Origin: Gammaproteobacteria bacterium
GTDB lineage: Bacteria > Pseudomonadota > Gammaproteobacteria > SURF-13
Reading direction: 5' to 3'
NCBI GenBank assembly: GCA_038924245.1
Contig: JBCKVB010000002.1
Coordinates: forward strand, 531 to 64,530
Length of the DNA: 64,000 bases
The stretch's first letter is position 1. Each line of letters begins with the position of its first letter. Shown here piece after piece: positions 28,546 to 56,219 of the stretch. The notes under the pieces are model-generated. The model saw only the letters and a program-made list of their open reading frames with translations. It searched no databases and had not been told where the DNA came from. Made by a program: the position numbers and the translations under genes.

Positions 28546-30180
28546 TTAGTGCCGGAAATGGCGCATGCCGGTGAACACCATGGCGATGCCGTGCTCATTC
28601 GCCGCCGCGATCACTTCCGCGTCGCGCACCGAGCCGCCGGGCTGGATGATGGCGCTGATGCCCGCTTGCGCGGCGGTGTCCACGCCGTCGCGGAACGGGA
28701 AGAAGGCGTCGCTCGCCACCACCGCGTGCTTCAGTATGAGCCCGGCCTCCTCGGCCTTCAGCACCGCGATGCGCGCGCTGTACACGCGGCTCATCTGTCC
28801 GGCGCCGATACCGAGAGTCCGCGCATCCCTGCCGTACACGATGGCGTTGGATTTCACGAATTTGGCCACCTTCCACACAAACAGCAGGTCTTGCAGTTGT
28901 TGCGGCGTGGGTTGTCTTTCCGTCACGATCTTGAGTTGCGCGGCGCTGATGGACGCCGCATCGCACTCCTGCACCAGCAGCCCGCCCGTGACGCGCTTGT
29001 AGTCCATCCCGCCTTGCGCCGGTCGCTCCCGGCATCCTGCCTCCCGCGACACTAGCAGAACCCTTCGCTGGCGCTCTTCCCTGTGCGTCGCCGCCGGCCA
29101 CTCGCCGCAGGCCAGTACGCGCACGTTGGGTTTGCCGCTGAGCACAGCGCGCGCTTCATCCGTCACCTGTGGGGCGATGATGACCTCCACGAATTGACCC
29201 TGCACAATGCTTTGCGCCGTCTCGGCGTCGAGCGCCTGATTAAAGGCGATGATGCCGCCGAACGCCGAGGTGGGGTCGGTGGCGTGGGCGCGCCGATAGG
29301 CTTCTGAAATATTTTTCCCCAGCGCCGCCCCGCATGGATTGGCGTGCTTCACGATCACGCAGGCCGGTACCGCGCCGAAGGATTTGACGCACTCCAGCGC
29401 GGCGTCGGCGTCCACGATGTTGTTAAAGGACAGGGGTTTGCCTTGCAGTTGCGTGGCGCTTGCCACGCAGCCGCTCGGCGGACTCGGTTCGCTGTAAAAG
29501 GCGGCCTGCTGGTGCGGGTTTTCGCCGTAGCGTAGCGCTTGCAGCTTGTGGAATGAAGCAACGAAGCGCTCAGGAAACAAGTCACGCGTATTCGCATCAT
29601 GAGTGTGGCGGCCCAGATATTCGGCAATCGCCGCGTCATATTGCGCGCTATGCGCAAAGGCCTTTTGCGCCAGCATGAAGCGCGTGTCCTGGCTCACCGC
29701 GCCTTGATGGGCGCGCATCTCGGCCAACACGCGCGCATAGTCCGCGCTCTCCACCAGTACCGTGACGGCGGCATGATTTTTCGCCGCCGCGCGCAGCAGG
29801 GCCGGGCCGCCGATGTCTATGTTTTCAATCGCCGTGGCGAGATCACAGCCGGGCGTGGCGATGGTTTGGGCGAAGGGATAGAGGTTCACCGCCAGAAGAT
29901 CAATCGGCGGGATGCCGTGTTCGGCCATCACCGCGTCGTCCGTGCCGCGCCGCCCCAGCAGGCCGCCGTGGATTTTGGGGTGCAGGGTTTTCACGCGCCC
30001 CGCCATCAGCTCCGGAAAGCCGGTGTAATCGGAGACCTCGGTCACCGCGATGCCGTGTTGTGCAAGCAGTCTGGCGGTGCCGCCGGTGGAGAGTATCTGT
30101 ACGCCCAGCTCCACCAGACCGCGCGCGAACTCGACGATTCCGGATTTGTCTGAAACGCTAAGGAGGGCGCGGGTAATCAT
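28546..30180 (-). CDS. purH: Bifunctional AICAR formyltransferase / IMP cyclohydrolase, carrying a 24-codon element insertion
   Basis: 544 aa. [11 protein letters not shown]-terminus and C-terminal ...TGMRHFRH. Insert [24 protein letters not shown] lies between ACGEWPA and [16 protein letters not shown]. Confidence 0.93.
29021..29092 (+). repeat. Intragenic palindromic element E3 (72-nt long form) inside purH
   Basis: GGTCGCTCCCGGCATCCTGCCTCCCGCGACACTAGCAGAACCCTTCGCTGGCGCTCTTCCCTGTGCGTCGCC. Confidence 0.9.
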
Positions 30181-30526: not shown

Positions 30527-31593
30527 GCCGCGAGTTCCTCCGACGCACAGGGAAGAGCGACAGCGAAGGGTCCTGCTAGTGTCGCGGGAGGCAGGATGCC
30601 GGGAGCGACGCCGCCGCCGCGTTCGGCATGCTGCAGACCGTCGAAAAATTGCCGGGTGATGGCCAATTGTTGCGCGCTGCTGGCGGCCGCGTTGATGGTT
30701 TGGCGAAACTGCGCGCTGCCGTTCTGCCCCTTGCTGTACCAGGACAGATGTTTGCGCGCCATCAGCACGCCGGTGTGCTCGCCGTAAAAGGCGTACAGGT
30801 TGCGCATGTGGCCCATCAGAATGGCGCGGATTTCGGCCACGCCCGGCTCCGGCATGATCCGGCCCGTTTCCAGATAATGCTGGATGGCGCGGAACAGCCA
30901 CGGGCGGCCTTGCGCCGCGCGCCCGATCATGATCCCGTCGGCGCGCGTGTAGTCGAGCACGAATTGCGCCTGTTCGGGTGTGCTGATGTCGCCGCCCGCG
31001 ATCACCGGGATGCGTACTTCTGATTTGATCGCGGCGATGGTGTCGTATTCGGCCTCGCCGCCGAAGGCGCAGGCGCGCGTGCGCCCGTGCACCGCCAGCG
31101 CCTGGATGCCGCATTGCTCCGCGATGCGCGCCACGGCGACGCCGTTGCGGTGCTGTCTGTCCCAGCCGGTGCGGATTTTTAATGTCACCGGCGCCGGCGC
31201 CGCGCGCACCACAGCTTCGAGAATACGCGCGACCAGTGATTCGTCCTGCAACAGCGCCGAGCCCGCCATCACGTTGCACACCTTCTTCGCCGGACAGCCC
31301 ATGTTGATGTCTATGATCTGCGCGCCGTTGTCCACGTTGTATTTGGCCGCTTCGGCCATGAGCCTGGGATCGGCCCCGGCGATCTGGATGATACGCGGCT
31401 CGGTCTCGCCCTCGTGGTTGGCGCGGCGCCGGGTTTTCGCGCTGCCCCACAGGAGTGAATTGGAAGACACCATCTCCGACACCGCCATGCCCGCGCCGAG
31501 CTGTTTGCACAACTGGCGGAACGGACGGTCGGTGACGCCCGCCATGGGCGCCAGAATCAGATTGTTGCTTAATTTATACGGGCCGATTTGCAT
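30523..31593 (-). CDS. dusB: tRNA-dihydrouridine synthase B, with an element insertion in the C-terminal tail
   Basis: 356 aa. LAPMAGVTDRPFR N-terminus. The tail ...[35 protein letters not shown] is encoded by element E4. Confidence 0.9.
   Translation of the reverse strand: MQIGPYKLSNNLILAPMAGVTDRPFRQLCKQLGAGMAVSEMVSSNSLLWGSAKTRRRANHEGETEPRIIQIAGADPRLMAEAAKYNVDNGAQIIDINMGCPAKKVCNVMAGSALLQDESLVARILEAVVRAAPAPVTLKIRTGWDRQHRNGVAVARIAEQCGIQALAVHGRTRACAFGGEAEYDTIAAIKSEVRIPVIAGGDISTPEQAQFVLDYTRADGIMIGRAAQGRPWLFRAIQHYLETGRIMPEPGVAEIRAILMGHMRNLYAFYGEHTGVLMARKHLSWYSKGQNGSAQFRQTINAAASSAQQLAITRQFFDGLQHAERGGGVAPGILPPATLAGPFAVALPCASEELAA
30540..30610 (-). repeat. Intragenic palindromic element E4 (long form) at the 3' end of dusB
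   Basis: The minus strand reads GTCGCTCCCGGCATCCTGCCTCCCGCGACACTAGCAGGACCCTTCGCTGTCGCTCTTCCCTGTGCGTCG. Boundaries are good to about 2 nt. Confidence 0.85.
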
Positions 31594-32471: not shown

Positions 32472-32562
32472 GGTTTACCGGGTATCTGCAAAGCGGAATC
32501 GTGCTGTGCAATAAAACGAAGGCCAGTATACCGCATTGGTGTTTTTTTCGCCATTAGGGAAG

Positions 32563-32705
32563 CTCTGAATAAGTCCATCCTGGACTTCTCAGAGCACGAA
32601 AAGCAAAAACGTGGCCATAAGAATTATTATGGTGCTTTTCTTCATTTTTCAAACACTTCCGTGTTTGAAAAATGGCGGCACATCCCTGTGCCGCAGGAAC
32701 CTCTA
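32563..32705 (+). repeat. Modular multi-hairpin element, copy A (C-rich loops on the plus strand)
   Basis: H1 32563-32594 CTCTGAATAAGTCC-ATCCT-GGACTTCTCAGAG. H2 GAAAAGCA...TGCTTTTC. H3 TTTTTCAAACAC-TTCC-GTGTTTGAAAAA. H4 32676-32693 CGGCAC-ATCCCT-GTGCCG. Confidence 0.85.
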
Positions 32706-32720
32706 ACTTAATCAGGTTCA

Positions 32721-34166
32721 TTACTGCTTGGTTTCCAGTGCCAACTGCGCCTCCAGGTCCTTGAGCCGCGCCTCGATTCTGGATCCCTGATAGAAATCGT
32801 TTTCCTTGAAGCGCGAGGCGATCTTGAGCTGCTCTATGGCGGAGGCCGTGGCGCCGTTTAAATAGTAGTATTCGGCCAGCGCCTGATGCGCCTCGCCGGG
32901 CAGCCCCGCCGCGCCGCGCGCCTCGGCCAGCAGCTTGTAGGTCTCGGCATCGTTGTATTGCGCGCGCCCGTGCCTTTCCAGCAGCGCCGCCGCCTCGCGT
33001 GCCTGCCCTGCTTGCAGCAGGGCGCGCCCGTAGCCCAGGGTCAACGCATGATTGCCGGGATGGAGCTTGAGCGCGTCATGGTAGATACTCACCGCCTGCG
33101 CCGTGCGCCGGCCGGCGAGCTCGATCTCGGCCAGCAGCAGCGCGTAGGCGGACTGATCCGGGCTCTTGTCCAGCAGCGCGCGCGCCTCCTTGCGCGCCGA
33201 TTCATAATCGCCGTTGCGCAGCAGCGCCCAGGCGTAACCATAGCGCTCCGCCGCGCGATCCGGGTTTTGCTTCAGGCCTTGCGCGGAACGTTTCAGCGCC
33301 TCTTTGGGATTTTTCTCACCCAGCACGCGCAGCTTGGCGCGCACCAGGTGATAGCTGAGGCTGTCGCTCACCTGGCGGTACGGATACTGTTCAGCGCGGT
33401 TACGCGTATCGGCGATACGCGCCACGGTGACGGGGTGAGTGCGCAAATAGTCGGGCAAGTTGGAACCGGCATAACGCGTGGCCTGCTGCAGGCGCTCGAA
33501 AAACACCGGCGTGGCGCGCGGGTCGAAACCGGCGCGCGCCAGGGTCTGGATGCCGATACGGTCCGCCTCCTCTTCATTGGAGCGCGTGAAATTGATCTGG
33601 GTCTGCACGATGCCGGCCTGGGTGGCGGCGAGCGCCGCCTGCCCCATTTGACTGTTCTGCGTGCTGAGCAGAATGCCGGCGATGAGCGCCGCCGCCGCGG
33701 GCAGGCTGAGCTTGTCCGCCGCCTCGAAGGCGCGCGCCAGGTGGCGCTGCGTCACGTGCGCGATTTCATGCGCGATCACCGAGGCCAGCTCGCTTTCCGA
33801 TTCGGAGGCGAGGATCAGCCCGCTGTTCACGCCGATGTAACCGCCCGGCCCGGCGAAGGCGTTGATGCTAGGGTCTTGCACCACGAAGAAGTGATAGTCG
33901 CGCGCCGCATCGTCGCTGTTGGAGGCAATGCGGTAGCCGAGCGCTCGCAGGTAGCCGGTGACTTCCGCGTCATCCATGATGGTGATCTGCTGGCGCAGCT
34001 CACGCATGAAGGCTTCGCCCATGCGCCGGTCCTGTTCGGCGGAAAGCGTGCTGGCGGCGCTATCGCCGATATCGGGCAGGTCGAGGTTAAGCCGCGCTTC
34101 GCCCTGCGCGGACATCCACAGCAGGCTGAGCAGGCAGAGCAAGGCAAGGCGTACGGTTGAGTTCAT
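32721..34166 (-). CDS. M48 family metalloprotease with TPR repeats (BepA/YfgC-like)
   Basis: 481 aa. Signal peptide, HEIAHVTQRH zinc motif, TPR-like C-terminal half. Confidence 0.85.
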   Translation of the reverse strand: MNSTVRLALLCLLSLLWMSAQGEARLNLDLPDIGDSAASTLSAEQDRRMGEAFMRELRQQITIMDDAEVTGYLRALGYRIASNSDDAARDYHFFVVQDPSINAFAGPGGYIGVNSGLILASESESELASVIAHEIAHVTQRHLARAFEAADKLSLPAAAALIAGILLSTQNSQMGQAALAATQAGIVQTQINFTRSNEEEADRIGIQTLARAGFDPRATPVFFERLQQATRYAGSNLPDYLRTHPVTVARIADTRNRAEQYPYRQVSDSLSYHLVRAKLRVLGEKNPKEALKRSAQGLKQNPDRAAERYGYAWALLRNGDYESARKEARALLDKSPDQSAYALLLAEIELAGRRTAQAVSIYHDALKLHPGNHALTLGYGRALLQAGQAREAAALLERHGRAQYNDAETYKLLAEARGAAGLPGEAHQALAEYYYLNGATASAIEQLKIASRFKENDFYQGSRIEARLKDLEAQLALETKQ

Positions 34167-34246
34167 GGCGTTATAGGCTTAAGACCCTGTCCGTGGCCAA
34201 TAGGTTCGAGTGCGCGCTCGCCTGTGCCATCTGCTTAGCTTAAGAA

Positions 34247-34440
34247 CTCTGAAAAACCCGTCCCTGGGATTTTTCAGAGACGGCCGCTCCTGCGCGTCCC
34301 TGCGCCCGCGGCATTGGGGCGTCCTGCCCGGCAAAAATAAAAAAACGTGGTTTTTTATTTTCTTCATTTTTCAAACACTTGACGTGTTTGAAAAATGGCG
34401 GTGCCTCCATGCACCGCACGGAACCTCTGACACATCAGAG
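34247..34440 (+). repeat. Modular multi-hairpin element, copy B (expanded)
   Basis: CTCTGAAAAACCC-GTCCCT-GGGATTTTTCAGAG; GCGC-GTCCCT-GCGC; GGGC-GTCCT-GCCC; an A/T hairpin; TTTTTCAAACAC-TTGAC-GTGTTTGAAAAA; CGGTGC-CTCCAT-GCACCG; CTCTGA-CACA-TCAGAG. Confidence 0.85.
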
Positions 34441-34496
34441 ATTCCTTTATACTGTTCAATTTTAGCGCAATCTGTATTCCAACCCAAGGAAAGTTC

Positions 34497-55556: not shown

Positions 55557-55609
55557 GGTTAATCATAAGTGGTAAGATAGACTGGCGGCGGCGATTATAA
55601 CCCGTGGTG

Positions 55610-55727
55610 CGGTGCAGGGACGCACCGCCATTTTTTAAATGCGTTAAGCATTTAAAAAATGGAGAAAAGCAAAAATCGCATTTTTGCTTTTCGTGCTGAA
55701 AAAGAGCCAAGGAGGCCTTTTTCAGCA
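55610..55727 (-). repeat. Modular multi-hairpin element, copy C (C-rich loops on the minus strand) between mreD and mrdA
   Basis: The plus strand reads CGGTGC-AGGGAC-GCACCG; CCATTTTTTAAATGC-GTTAA-GCATTTAAAAAATGG; GAAAAGCAAAAAT-CGC-ATTTTTGCTTTTC; TGCTGAAAAAGAGCC-AAGGA-GGCCTTTTTCAGCA. Confidence 0.85.
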
Positions 55728-55730
55728 TAT

Positions 55731-56219
55731 TTAGGCGACGCGGTAACGGTGCCGTACATAACGCAGCGTGAGATACACCGTGGGCCAGATCAGCATGCTG
55801 GTGGGAGTGGCGAGCCAGTAACTCCAGCTCCACGGCGCCACCTGCGACATGCCTTTTACCCAAAAGCCGAGCATTTGATCGAAGAAAAGAATCAGCACCG
55901 CCACCGCCAGCGCTTGGTGCAAAAGAGGCAGTTGGCGGATGCCGAGATGGAGGTGCGTGGCGCTGTAGGCTATCAACGCAAAGCTCAGCGCGTGCTGGCC
56001 GAGCAGGGTGCCCTGCGCGGCGTCGAGCAACAGGCCCACCGCCCAGGCGCCGCCCACGCCGATGCTTCCGGGCAGTGCGAGACACCAGTAGATCAGGGTC
56101 ATGGCCATCCAGGCCGGCCGCGCGGCGGCCAGCGCATCGGGCAGCGGCAGCAGGGTCAGCAGCAGCGCCACTGCGAAGCTTGAGATGATGATCCACGGGT
56201 GGTGCGCCTTGCGTATCAT
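55731..56219 (-). CDS. mreD: Rod shape-determining protein MreD
   Basis: 162 aa polytopic membrane protein following mreC. Confidence 0.88.
   Translation of the reverse strand: MIRKAHHPWIIISSFAVALLLTLLPLPDALAAARPAWMAMTLIYWCLALPGSIGVGGAWAVGLLLDAAQGTLLGQHALSFALIAYSATHLHLGIRQLPLLHQALAVAVLILFFDQMLGFWVKGMSQVAPWSWSYWLATPTSMLIWPTVYLTLRYVRHRYRVA

Follow-up and report, generated by a model that had tools for sequence, protein, structure and literature searches.

A very probable IS5-family MITE with a conserved multi-hairpin interior in a gammaproteobacterial genome

Short repeats related to the present family

MITEPsy1 of Pseudomonas syringae pv. phaseolicola 1448A is a 100-nt element with GGAAGGTCTGAAAAAGCC ends, a 4-nt CTAG/YTAA duplication and about six copies; its presumed parent is ISPsy2, an IS5-family insertion sequence of about 1.2 kb, and its transposition has been trapped in vivo (Bardaji et al., 2011; PMC3189936). 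Because its transposition was shown experimentally, MITEPsy1 provides a direct precedent for the mechanism proposed here. The family described below resembles MITEPsy1 in being non-coding and multicopy and in its probable IS5-family parent, and GGAAGGTCTGAAAAAGCC agrees with the subfamily 1b end GGAAACTCTGAAAAATCC at 15 of 18 positions. The available part of the source mentions neither a conserved multi-hairpin interior nor modules of intragenic repeats (PMC3189936). The present family is also longer, at about 150-210 nt, has five to seven hairpins, occurs in small genomes at 7-90 copies each, and combines a single interior with two or more different IS5-type ends.

Further MITEs related to the IS5 family are BrickBuilt, MITE239/464/PgRS (Porphyromonas gingivalis) and ATR (Neisseria meningitidis, parent ISNme1) (PMC4596501). 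They too are short and non-coding, with terminal repeats matching resident IS5-family insertion sequences, but they have GAGACCTTTGCA-type ends, tandem-minisatellite interiors and variable duplications (PMC4596501). The regulatory RNAs CsrB, RsmY and RsmZ offer a likeness of another kind: they carry several GGA-loop hairpins, and one strand of the present elements fits the CsrA/RsmE consensus. The genes for those RNAs are syntenic, number one or a few in each genome, and have a GacA/UvrY-dependent promoter and a terminator of their own, whereas the present elements are mobile, multicopy, randomly oriented and without such a promoter.

Abundant intergenic repeats of about 100-160 bp with inverted ends include the Correia elements (CREE/NEMIS) of Neisseria, ERIC, and the pneumococcal BOX and RUP repeats. 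These are often found in operons and at gene ends, are co-transcribed and exert effects through secondary structure, and BOX, like BIME, is modular. They differ from the present family in end sequences, host lineages and target duplications (TA for Correia), and we know of none that has hairpin modules in common with an in-frame intragenic repeat family.

Copies in the window and their dispersal

The window, a stretch of 64,000 nt of contig JBCKVB010000002.1 (assembly GCA_038924245.1), had been described in a sequence-only reading as holding three intergenic copies (A, B and C) of a four-hairpin element. Their positions and hairpin order (H1 to H4) were confirmed in the window sequence (Table 1), and a covariance model of H2-H3-H4 found exactly these three copies with E values of 1e-16 to 1e-20, the next match having E = 0.025. 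What had been overlooked is a terminal hairpin, H5 (GGAACCTCTGA-loop-TCAGAGGTTCC), which is intact in B, degenerate in A and absent in C, together with terminal inverted repeats and 4-bp flanking duplications. The complete unit of about 150 bp runs from a left end GGAAnCTCTGA, forming the outer arm of H1, through H2, H3 and H4 to H5, a terminal palindrome with the right terminal repeat as its outer arm. Copy C has no recognizable right end, and its boundaries are partly uncertain.

Table 1. Features of copies A, B and C and of adjoining genes in the window (z, fold energy relative to shuffled sequence)
Feature	Position	Strand	Details
Copy A, left target-site duplication TTAG	32554..32557	.	partner TTAC 32721-32724; empty site in G001 GCCA-TCAG-CG, single copy
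Copy A, whole element, probable MITE, subfamily 1, degenerate right end	32558..32720	+	nhmmer 152.9 bits; covariance model 79.7 bits; fold -65.8 kcal/mol, z -9.5 (- strand, z -8.2)
Copy A, left terminal inverted repeat GGAAGCTCTGA	32558..32568	+	GGAAnCTCTGA core; IS end match
Copy A, H1	32562..32595	+	outer stem GCTCTGA/TCAGAGC, inner AAGTCC/GGACTT, loop ATCCT; sequence and fold
Copy A, H2 (AAAAGC.../...GCTTTT)	32598..32640	+	optional AT-rich palindrome insert CCATAAGAATTATTATGG at 32615-32632
Copy A, H3	32643..32674	+	perfect 14-bp A/T-rich hairpin CATTTTTCAAACAC-TTCC-GTGTTTGAAAAATG; sequence and fold
Copy A, H4	32675..32694	+	GCGGCAC-ATCCCT-GTGCCGC; module common to intragenic repeats
Copy A, degenerate H5 / right terminal repeat GGAACCTCTAACTTAATCAGGTTCA	32696..32720	+	alignment with intact copies
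Copy A, right target-site duplication TTAC	32721..32724	.	empty-site comparison; 32721-32723 is the TAA stop of the M48/TPR protease ORF
M48/TPR protease ORF	32721..34166	-	
Copy B, left target-site duplication TTAA	34240..34243	.	partner TTTA 34446-34449; G001/G002 empty site GCTTTATACTG once
Copy B, whole element, probable MITE, long variant with nested unit	34244..34445	+	nhmmer 125.1 bits; covariance model 95.1 bits; fold -89.1 kcal/mol, z -8.1
Copy B, H1	34247..34279	+	CTCTGAAAAACCC-GTCCCT-GGGATTTTTCAGAG; sequence and fold
Copy B, nested two-hairpin unit, ~51 nt	34282..34332	+	GGCCGC-tcct-GCGC-GTCCCT-GCGC-cc-GCGGC ... GGGC-GTCCT-GCCC; intragenic-repeat type
Copy B, H2	34334..34361	+	sequence and fold
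Copy B, H3	34365..34397	+	sequence and fold
Copy B, H4	34398..34417	+	GCGGTGC-CTCCAT-GCACCGC; sequence and fold
Copy B, H5 / right terminal repeat	34420..34445	+	GGAACCTCTGA-CACA-TCAGAGATTCC; sequence and fold
Copy B, right target-site duplication TTTA	34446..34449	.	empty-site comparison
Copy C, probable MITE, second-subfamily type	55609..55730	-	H1 outer stem TGCTGAAAAA; covariance model 96.8 bits; fold -62.3 kcal/mol, z -11.3
Copy C, hairpins	H4 55609-55628; H3 55629-55661; H2 55664-55692; H1 55695-55727	-	
Copy C, flanking TTAG (CTAA on - strand)	55731..55734	.	contains mreD stop codon
MreD ORF	55731..56219	-	

The elements measure 122-202 bp in the window and showed no coding capacity: among ORFs of at least 50 codons, they are touched only by overlapping frames of 52-62 aa and by a GTG frame of 210 aa that overlaps a neighboring gene, and our own crude ORF scorer called none of these frames a gene. 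The AT-rich insert in H2 of copy A recurs in two other copies (C9:7225 and C5:5523).

The count of three holds for the window only, as the 1.38-Mb draft assembly contains about 30 loci. Among the 19 other genomes of the bacterial family, 17 contain 7-90 core matches apiece, another contains one and the last none; elsewhere in the class Gammaproteobacteria the occurrence is patchy. The sites of A, B and C are all empty in same-genus genomes: copy A is missing from the orthologous site in G001 and G002, and the mreD-mrdA spacer that copy C occupies is only about 31 nt long in G001 and G003. Empty sites were likewise found for at least six further loci (six or seven), while some other insertion sites are occupied in a sister genome and long copies of the B type are present at several places in G001-G003. 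The family also displays turnover of insertions among the species of a single genus. Neither conserved flanks nor synteny of the copies was found. Relative to flanking genes in tandem contexts, the copies are oriented at random (28 sense, 23 antisense). Convergent spacers hold 23 of the 86 placed copies but make up 14% of all spacers, an enrichment of about 2-fold. The elements explain many contig breaks, as among relatives 35 of 119 copies lie at locus ends or have no called neighbor gene.

Transposon ends, target sites and cognate insertion sequences

We consider it very probable that copies A, B and C belong to an IS5-family MITE, derived from and moved in trans by IS5-group DDE transposases. 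Multicopy dispersal, terminal repeats, target duplications and the empty sites of sister species were observed directly, as were intact IS5-family insertion sequences with matching ends in other bacteria; mobilization in trans by an IS5-family transposase is inferred, with MITEPsy1 as the precedent. Subfamily 1 has the terminal inverted repeats GGAAnCTCTGA ... TCAGAGnTTCC and subfamily 2 has CAGKYTGYTGAAAAA at both ends, such that left and right ends co-vary between subfamilies. In complete subfamily-1 copies, the 4-bp target-site duplications are identical in 22 of 30 cases and agree at three or more of four positions in 29 of 30. They include TTAA as well as the non-palindromic CTAA, TTAT, TTAG, TAAG and TTTC, and complete subfamily-2 copies are flanked by CTAA/CTAT duplications. 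The genome also contains a second short element that combines the ends of the MITE with another interior and a TTAG duplication.

The ends match those of autonomous insertion sequences. The first 22 nt of copy A agree with the IRR of E. coli IS5 at 16 positions. Four insertion sequences, L255, L256 and L261 (1,158 bp each) and L267 (1.18 kb), have GGAACCTCTG... ends and TTAG/CTAA/TTAA duplications, and encode transposases of 319-320 aa that score 342-370 bits on the IS5 family model NF033581 (cut-off, 140 bits). The 11-nt GGAAnCTCTGA core is identical to the right end of L255, and the left ends of L255 and L261 (GGAACCTCTGC) show one difference from it beyond the variable n. Genome G034, with about 100 core copies, carries a 719-bp internally deleted insertion sequence with MITE-type ends and a CTAA duplication, whose ORF pieces are 44% and 53% identical to residues 1-108 and 257-314 of E. 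coli InsH. For subfamily 2, the end CAGGCTGTTGAAAAA agrees at 14 of 15 positions with the CAGGCCGTTGAAAAA end of L155, an intact IS5-family insertion sequence from the same bacterial family.

Insertion sequences with subfamily-1 ends were found in other lineages of the Gammaproteobacteria only, outside this genome and genus, and most insertion sequence matches within the bacterial family have other ends. No intact cognate IS5-family transposase was detected in the assembly or in three same-genus assemblies; the DDE_Tnp_1 (PF01609) genes of the assembly, unclassified and judged by eye, resemble frameshifted IS4-type genes. Metagenome-assembled genomes commonly lose insertion sequences. Recent mobility within the genus is indicated only by insertion polymorphism.

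In the proposed mechanism, the transposase would recognize the two ends and insert the unit at YTAR-like tetranucleotides (TTAA, CTAA, TTAG, TTAT), duplicating the target. Such targets contain TAA or TAG and would be rare inside the genes of a 60% G+C genome, which would explain why surviving insertions gather at stop codons and in spacers. The target duplication would also restore the stop codon, as for the M48 protease gene at copy A and apparently mreD at copy C. By the gene calls of our crude ORF scorer, which underlie the orientation counts as well, 31 of 130 ends of the elements have the stop codon of an ORF of 80 codons or more within the flanking tetranucleotide or a few bases from it. 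Stop codons at first seemed to adjoin the H1 end in sense orientation, but this did not survive the addition of more copies (28 versus 23), and both ends abut stops. We attribute the stop-codon pattern to the YTAR target and not to a function in 3'-UTRs. The family exhibits a target preference by which, in a compact, G+C-rich genome, insertions come to lie exactly on stop codons. For annotation, hairpin clusters of this kind in uncultured Acidiferrobacterales-like genomes should be labeled as IS5-type MITEs and not as sRNA genes.

Alternative explanations and the conserved interior

An origin from the IS200/IS605 side has some initial appeal, as the genome contains three Y1_Tnp (PF01797) genes, hairpins lie at both element ends as they do at IS200/IS605 ends, and a RAYT-like gene has a partial element (C14:1690-1745) about 50-100 nt downstream of it. 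The elements would then have been moved by the genome's RAYT-like Y1 transposases as units of the REP/BIME/REPIN type, or be PATE-type derivatives of IS200/IS605. PATE and other IS200/IS605 derivatives have one fixed target tetra- or pentanucleotide, located 5' of the left end only, and to our knowledge neither RAYT-moved nor IS200/IS605 elements have target duplications or terminal inverted repeats. Against this, terminal repeats are present here, variable 4-bp direct repeats are found on both sides in 29 of 30 copies, and the ends match IS5-family insertion sequences instead, leaving this explanation very improbable. RAYT genes are bordered by the REP units that they mobilize, but the three Y1_Tnp genes here have unrelated inverted repeats as their flanks, and the target duplications led us to reject them as mobilizers.

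The sequence-only reading had likened the copies to CsrB/RsmY/RsmZ-type genes for sponge RNAs, transcribed from the GGA-loop strand and sequestering CsrA. The likeness of the loops stands as a matter of sequence: on one strand the apices ACAGGGAUGU (H4) and CCAGGAUGG (H1) fit the CsrA/RsmE consensus, which is reportedly (A/U)CANGGANG(U/A) with the GGA placed in the loop of a hairpin. There are five consensus-like loops in copy B, the genome contains 78 hairpins with a CA[N]GGATG apex as compared to 3-31 for control motifs, and csrA was found in 3/3 same-genus genomes. What fails is any preference for that strand. Genic apex hairpins are 14 sense and 17 antisense, orientation relative to genes is random (28 versus 23), and G-U and A-C intermediates are equally common (43 versus 51), so there is no strand-specific RNA signature. 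No GacA/UvrY box within 3 mismatches was found near any copy, such matches being fewer than expected by chance, and no conserved promoter emerged, the only promoter-like site being one internal match in copy A at chance level. The TATAAA beside copy B, offered earlier as a candidate promoter, belongs to the ancestral flank plus target duplication; it is no promoter of the element, since it is already present at the empty site of sister genomes. Rfam gave 0 matches at gathering score in the window. Not finding csrA in the 82.6%-complete assembly would count against a sponge, but we discount it as evidence against CsrA because all same-genus genomes have the gene; the motif nevertheless persists in genomes of the family in which no csrA was found, one of them 97% complete. 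The transposon hallmarks and the absence of the elements from orthologous sites in sister species weigh further against it. Numerous, randomly oriented copies without conserved flanks are what the earlier reading had itself named as contrary evidence, and they are what we found; we regard sponge RNA genes as highly unlikely.

Elements of the MITE kind are known, but the hairpin interior of this family shows unusually strong conservation. The compensatory stem differences previously seen between copies are real: in a set of 87 distinct copies drawn from many genomes, paired cells make up 96.6% and double changes occur at 23 of 32 pairs, values that none of 500 shuffles reached. The interior is conserved at least as much as the ends, with co-varying stems and almost invariant loop motifs, and the H2-H3-H4 core structure is kept across subfamilies with different ends. 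Transposition alone does not explain such an interior, and a plain MITE needs none.

The proposed identity of H4 with hairpin 2 of the in-frame intragenic elements also held, reinforced by an alternative long apex GAACCCTTCGCT...GCTCTTCCCT that H4 of some copies has in common with the 72-nt intragenic form. The extra GC hairpins reported for copy B are present and represent a nested copy of a two-hairpin unit with the architecture of the intragenic copies E1-E5; shorter, one-hairpin versions occupy the same position in C62 and C65. The elements form one modular multi-hairpin family with hairpin modules in common with in-frame intragenic repeats, as had been suggested. What makes the family mildly interesting is compensatory conservation that covers the interior and not just the ends, combined with CsrA-consensus-like loops and with whole modules in common with the intragenic repeats.

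The reading that we prefer is that the interior, rather than being a strand-specific RNA gene, would have a property independent of orientation and act as a bidirectional terminator-like or insulating core. It is based on the T-runs of H3, which in copy A directly follow H2 on one strand and the H4 complement on the other; on the - strand, H4 reads GCGGCACAGGGATGTGCCGC followed by CATTTTT, a terminator-like arrangement. Such a core could make insertions tolerable, or could be needed at the DNA level.

A functional role within host mRNAs is possible but tentative: the hairpins of the MITEs may have been co-opted as putative terminators or 3'-end stabilizers or, in one orientation, as scattered sites for CsrA binding through which regulation is rewired. 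Terminator-like sites exist in every copy (the H4 complement then CATTTTT, H2 then a T-run), the H4-complement site of copy A follows the M48 protease stop codon by about 26 nt on the strand of that gene, compensatory changes preserve the core structure across subfamilies with different ends, and convergent spacers are enriched about 2-fold. Conversely, the H2 stem is nearly all A-U and would be a weak terminator, copy C lies within the mreBCD-mrdA operon, where a strong terminator would harm, and palindrome arms can stay complementary through template switching without selection. Co-option of this kind is compatible with the IS5-MITE explanation.

A nearly invariant apex is common to H1, H4, the nested unit of copy B and the in-frame intragenic repeats. 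More speculatively, and with little likelihood in our estimation, this apex, (A)CA-N-GGA-UG(U) with the complement CA-UCC-N-UG, may be the putative site of a sequence-specific hairpin-binding factor, with the IS5-type MITE and the unrelated in-frame repeats both spreading the module through small sulfur-oxidizer genomes as a distributed decoy or regulon-rewiring system. If so, the nested unit and the +18-nt apex variant that the MITE and intragenic families have in common would also imply that modules are exchanged between these families by hairpin-targeted copying, a mechanism separate from IS5 transposition. Candidate factors for binding the apex are CsrA/RsmA acting on RNA, the obvious one, or a protein acting on single-stranded DNA.

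A dispersed five-hairpin unit

The three hairpin-rich stretches (copies A, B and C) described by the sequence-only reading were found where and as it placed them; the observation therefore stands, and the analysis extends it. The hairpin row of each copy is far more stable than shuffled sequence on either strand (z -8 to -11). A covariance model of the H2-H3-H4 core matches the window at exactly these three copies, and an Rfam search of the window returned no matches. From an alignment of this genome's copies we derived a complete unit of ~150 bp. Its left end, GGAAnCTCTGA, doubles as the 5' arm of H1, whose inner stem carries an RTCCYT loop. H1 is followed by H2, which has arms AAAAGCAAAAA/TTTTTGCTTTT and in some copies, copy A among them, an A/T palindrome insert. 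Next come H3, a perfect hairpin rich in A/T, and H4 (GGCGGYRC-ATCCCT-GYRCCGCC). The unit closes with the palindrome H5, GGAACCTCTGA-loop-TCAGAGGTTCC; the outer arm of H5 is the right end. The order of H1 to H4 is as originally stated; H5, found in copy B, degenerate in copy A and missing from copy C, had been overlooked.

Using nhmmer, we located ~30 loci in this 1.38-Mb, 82.6%-complete draft. Of 19 other genomes of the bacterial family, 17 hold 7-90 matches to the core model, one a single match and one none; a few further families of the class also have the core (e.g. ~100 matches in the Chromatiales MAG G034 and 74 in genome G038). Same-genus genomes have no insertion at the sites orthologous to those of A, B and C. 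For 14 further copies, the flanks were joined and the concatenate searched against these sister genomes: at seven loci the sequence is unbroken in one to three sisters, and at two the element is present in one. Empty sites have one tetranucleotide, occupied sites one on each side. These comparisons indicate a repeat that is both dispersed and mobile.

Where copy C ends on its right side is uncertain, because the adjoining 32 nt match no part of the element and have no equivalent in sister genomes, whose mreD-mrdA spacer is ~31 nt long. Solo H5 palindromes, with no other element part, also occur, one of them (C5:34400) inside a larger perfect palindrome of ~50 nt; such solos could be remnants, or else minimal end-to-end derivatives.

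Locations of the elements and associated features (window coordinates, or contig and position in this assembly unless another genome is named)
Feature	Location	Context
Copy A	window 32558-32720 (+)	between stop codon of M48/TPR (BepA-like) protease gene and soxY; genes all on minus strand
Copy B	window 34244-34445 (+)	between start of M48/TPR protease gene and divergent gene without assigned function
H5 of copy B	window 34420-34445	
Copy C	window 55609-55730 (-)	occupies mreD-mrdA spacer
Stretch adjoining copy C	window 55577-55608	ATAGACTGGCGGCGGCGATTATAACCCGTGGT
Alternative apex, intragenic repeats E3, E4	window 29021-29092, 30540-30610	
Alternative apex, MITE H4 copies	C11:30653-30837, C1:66512-66646, C65:2924-3105	
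Solo H5 palindromes	C5:34400-34450, C33:8359-8391, C46:~625-655, C5:46304-46332	
GGAACCTCTGA-ended ~130-nt element	C11:4837-4975; also C1:22754, C6:33535, C39:7640-7700	outside window (C11 copy)
DDE_Tnp_1 genes	C17:19447-20617, C54:903-1679	frameshifted or truncated
Y1 transposase genes L001, L002, L003	C14:669-1640, C53:1-616, C11:16428-17282	RAYT/IS200-like, 205-323 aa
Partial MITE	C14:1690-1745	H1 and nested-unit-like hairpin
Core copy with other ends (L023)	genome G016 (C1), L023 positions 1430-1650	
Subfamily-2-like IS (L155/L164)	genome G009 (MAG120), 286-1614	1.33 kb

Ends, target duplications and transposase relatives

The element has at least two end types. The flanks of 30 complete subfamily-1 copies, drawn from several genomes, were compared: 22 copies are flanked by identical 4-bp direct repeats (TTAA, CTAA, TTAT, TTAG, TAAG or TTTC) and 29 by repeats agreeing at at least three of four positions. 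Since non-palindromic repeats are included, these are true duplications rather than a longer inverted repeat. Subfamily 2, to which copy C is assigned from its H1, has CAGKYTGYTGAAAAA at H1 and H5 alike, with CTAA/CTAT flanks; the two ends thus differ jointly between subfamilies, which is what recognition of both by a single protein would produce. The position of copies on stop codons follows from the target tetranucleotides, which include TAA or TAG. Of 130 element ends, 31 have the stop codon of an ORF (80 codons or longer) inside the flanking tetranucleotide or no more than a few bases from it; copy A, at the M48 protease gene, and copy C, at mreD, are cases of this. Convergent spacers are enriched about twofold among placed copies.

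The ends of E. coli IS5 are GGAAGGTGCGAATAAG and GGAAGGTGCGAACAAGTCCCTG, and the element's GGAAGCTCTGAATAAGTCCATC matches at 16 of 22 positions. The core-rich G034 carries a 719-bp element with a CTAA duplication and ends GGAACCTCTGAACAAG and GGAACCTCTGCATAAG; its reading frame is in pieces, with 44% and 53% identity to InsH residues 1-108 and 257-314, and it is therefore an IS5-group IS with an internal deletion. In other Gammaproteobacteria MAGs, transposases related to this one belong to intact 1,158-1,184-bp ISs with ends as in our element, flanked by TTAG, CTAA or TTAA duplications, and these 319-320-aa transposases score 342-370 bits on the IS5 family model NF033581 (cut-off 140 bits). 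At 14 of 15 positions, the subfamily-2 end agrees with the end of L155, an intact IS5-family IS from another member genome of this bacterial family. Taken together, the ends, duplications and relatives identify the element as a new, apparently unnamed IS5-family MITE. Such MITEs are already known as a kind, and further IS5-related examples are recorded (PMC4596501). The closest described element is MITEPsy1 of Pseudomonas syringae, with its presumed parent ISPsy2; the ends of MITEPsy1 are GGAAGGTCTGAAAAAGCC, it duplicates 4 nt of CTAG/YTAA targets, and its transposition was trapped in vivo (PMC3189936).

An intact cognate IS was not found in this assembly or in three same-genus assemblies. The assembly's only DDE_Tnp_1 genes, disrupted and by eye resembling IS4-type genes, were ruled out as the cognate enzyme. 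A third short element has GGAACCTCTGA ends and a TTAG duplication around a different interior (hairpins GTCATTCCGGGCG...CCCGGAAT and ATTCCCGCG...CGCGGGAATGAC); this element is presumably moved by the same IS5-type transposase as a second passenger, which fits one transposase with several passengers. The protein of the subfamily-2-like IS is 97-100% identical in Tepidiphilus, Fontimonas, Tepidimonas and Acidovorax temperans and 92-93% in Xenophilus, so that this IS has spread widely by recent transfer or, as it lies in a MAG, is possibly a binning contaminant. Of the Y1 transposase genes, that on C14 lies between inverted repeats of its own (AAAAGGGGTCAAGTTCATTGTATGAC / GTCATACAATGAACATGACCCCTTTTG), which bear no relation to the MITE; ~50-100 nt downstream there is a partial MITE.

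The conserved interior

In the core alignment, which had been fitted to the model, 96.6% of cells are paired and compensatory double changes occur at 23 of 32 pairs, values reached by 0 of 500 shuffles; palindromes can also stay complementary through template switching. The H4 apex CATCC.TG is at least 90% conserved except at one position (~60%), with variable stems. IS5-type ends of at least two and probably three kinds surround the same interior. The L023 copy has another terminal hairpin pair (H1 GTTAGAGAAAGACC-ATCCCC-..., H5 CTAGCAGGGTGCTGAGAAGCACCGTGCTAG), suggesting a third end type.

The sequence-only reading had proposed CsrB/RsmY/RsmZ-type sponge RNAs that bind CsrA through GGA loops. 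The apices of one strand read ACAGGGAUGU and CCAGGAUGG, which we take to fit the CsrA/RsmE consensus, and the CA[N]GGATG apex is over-represented (78 hairpins versus 3-31 for control motifs). However, this motif is kept in family genomes without detectable csrA, and neither strand is favoured: with respect to co-directional neighbours the copies are randomly oriented (28 sense, 23 antisense), apex hairpins inside genes divide 14 to 17 by strand, and stem G-U and A-C mismatches are equally frequent (43 versus 51). A search for a GacA box and a consistent promoter found neither, and the TATAAA adjoining copy B, noted as a possible promoter, belongs to the ancestral flank. csrA was not found in this assembly yet is present in the genus, and is therefore neutral. 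The sponge reading is thus not supported. The core has terminator-like sites in both directions (H2 with a T-run; the complement of H4 with CATTTTT), and our preferred candidate role is an orientation-independent terminator/insulator, or a role at the DNA level.

Modules shared with the in-frame repeats

The proposal that the MITE and the in-frame intragenic two-hairpin repeats share a module holds, since H4 is hairpin 2 of those repeats and both have a common alternative apex. This long apex (GAACCCTTCGCT...GCTCTTCCCT), present in H4 of some copies, extends the intragenic form from 54 to 72 nt; it consists of 18-19 nt, GAACCCTTCGCTnnnGCTCT, placed before TCCCTG. Its occurrence in both implies exchange or parallel insertion between two differently moving repeat families. 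The two 'extra' GC hairpins of copy B are a nested ~51-nt two-hairpin unit, whose architecture matches the window's in-frame intragenic repeats.
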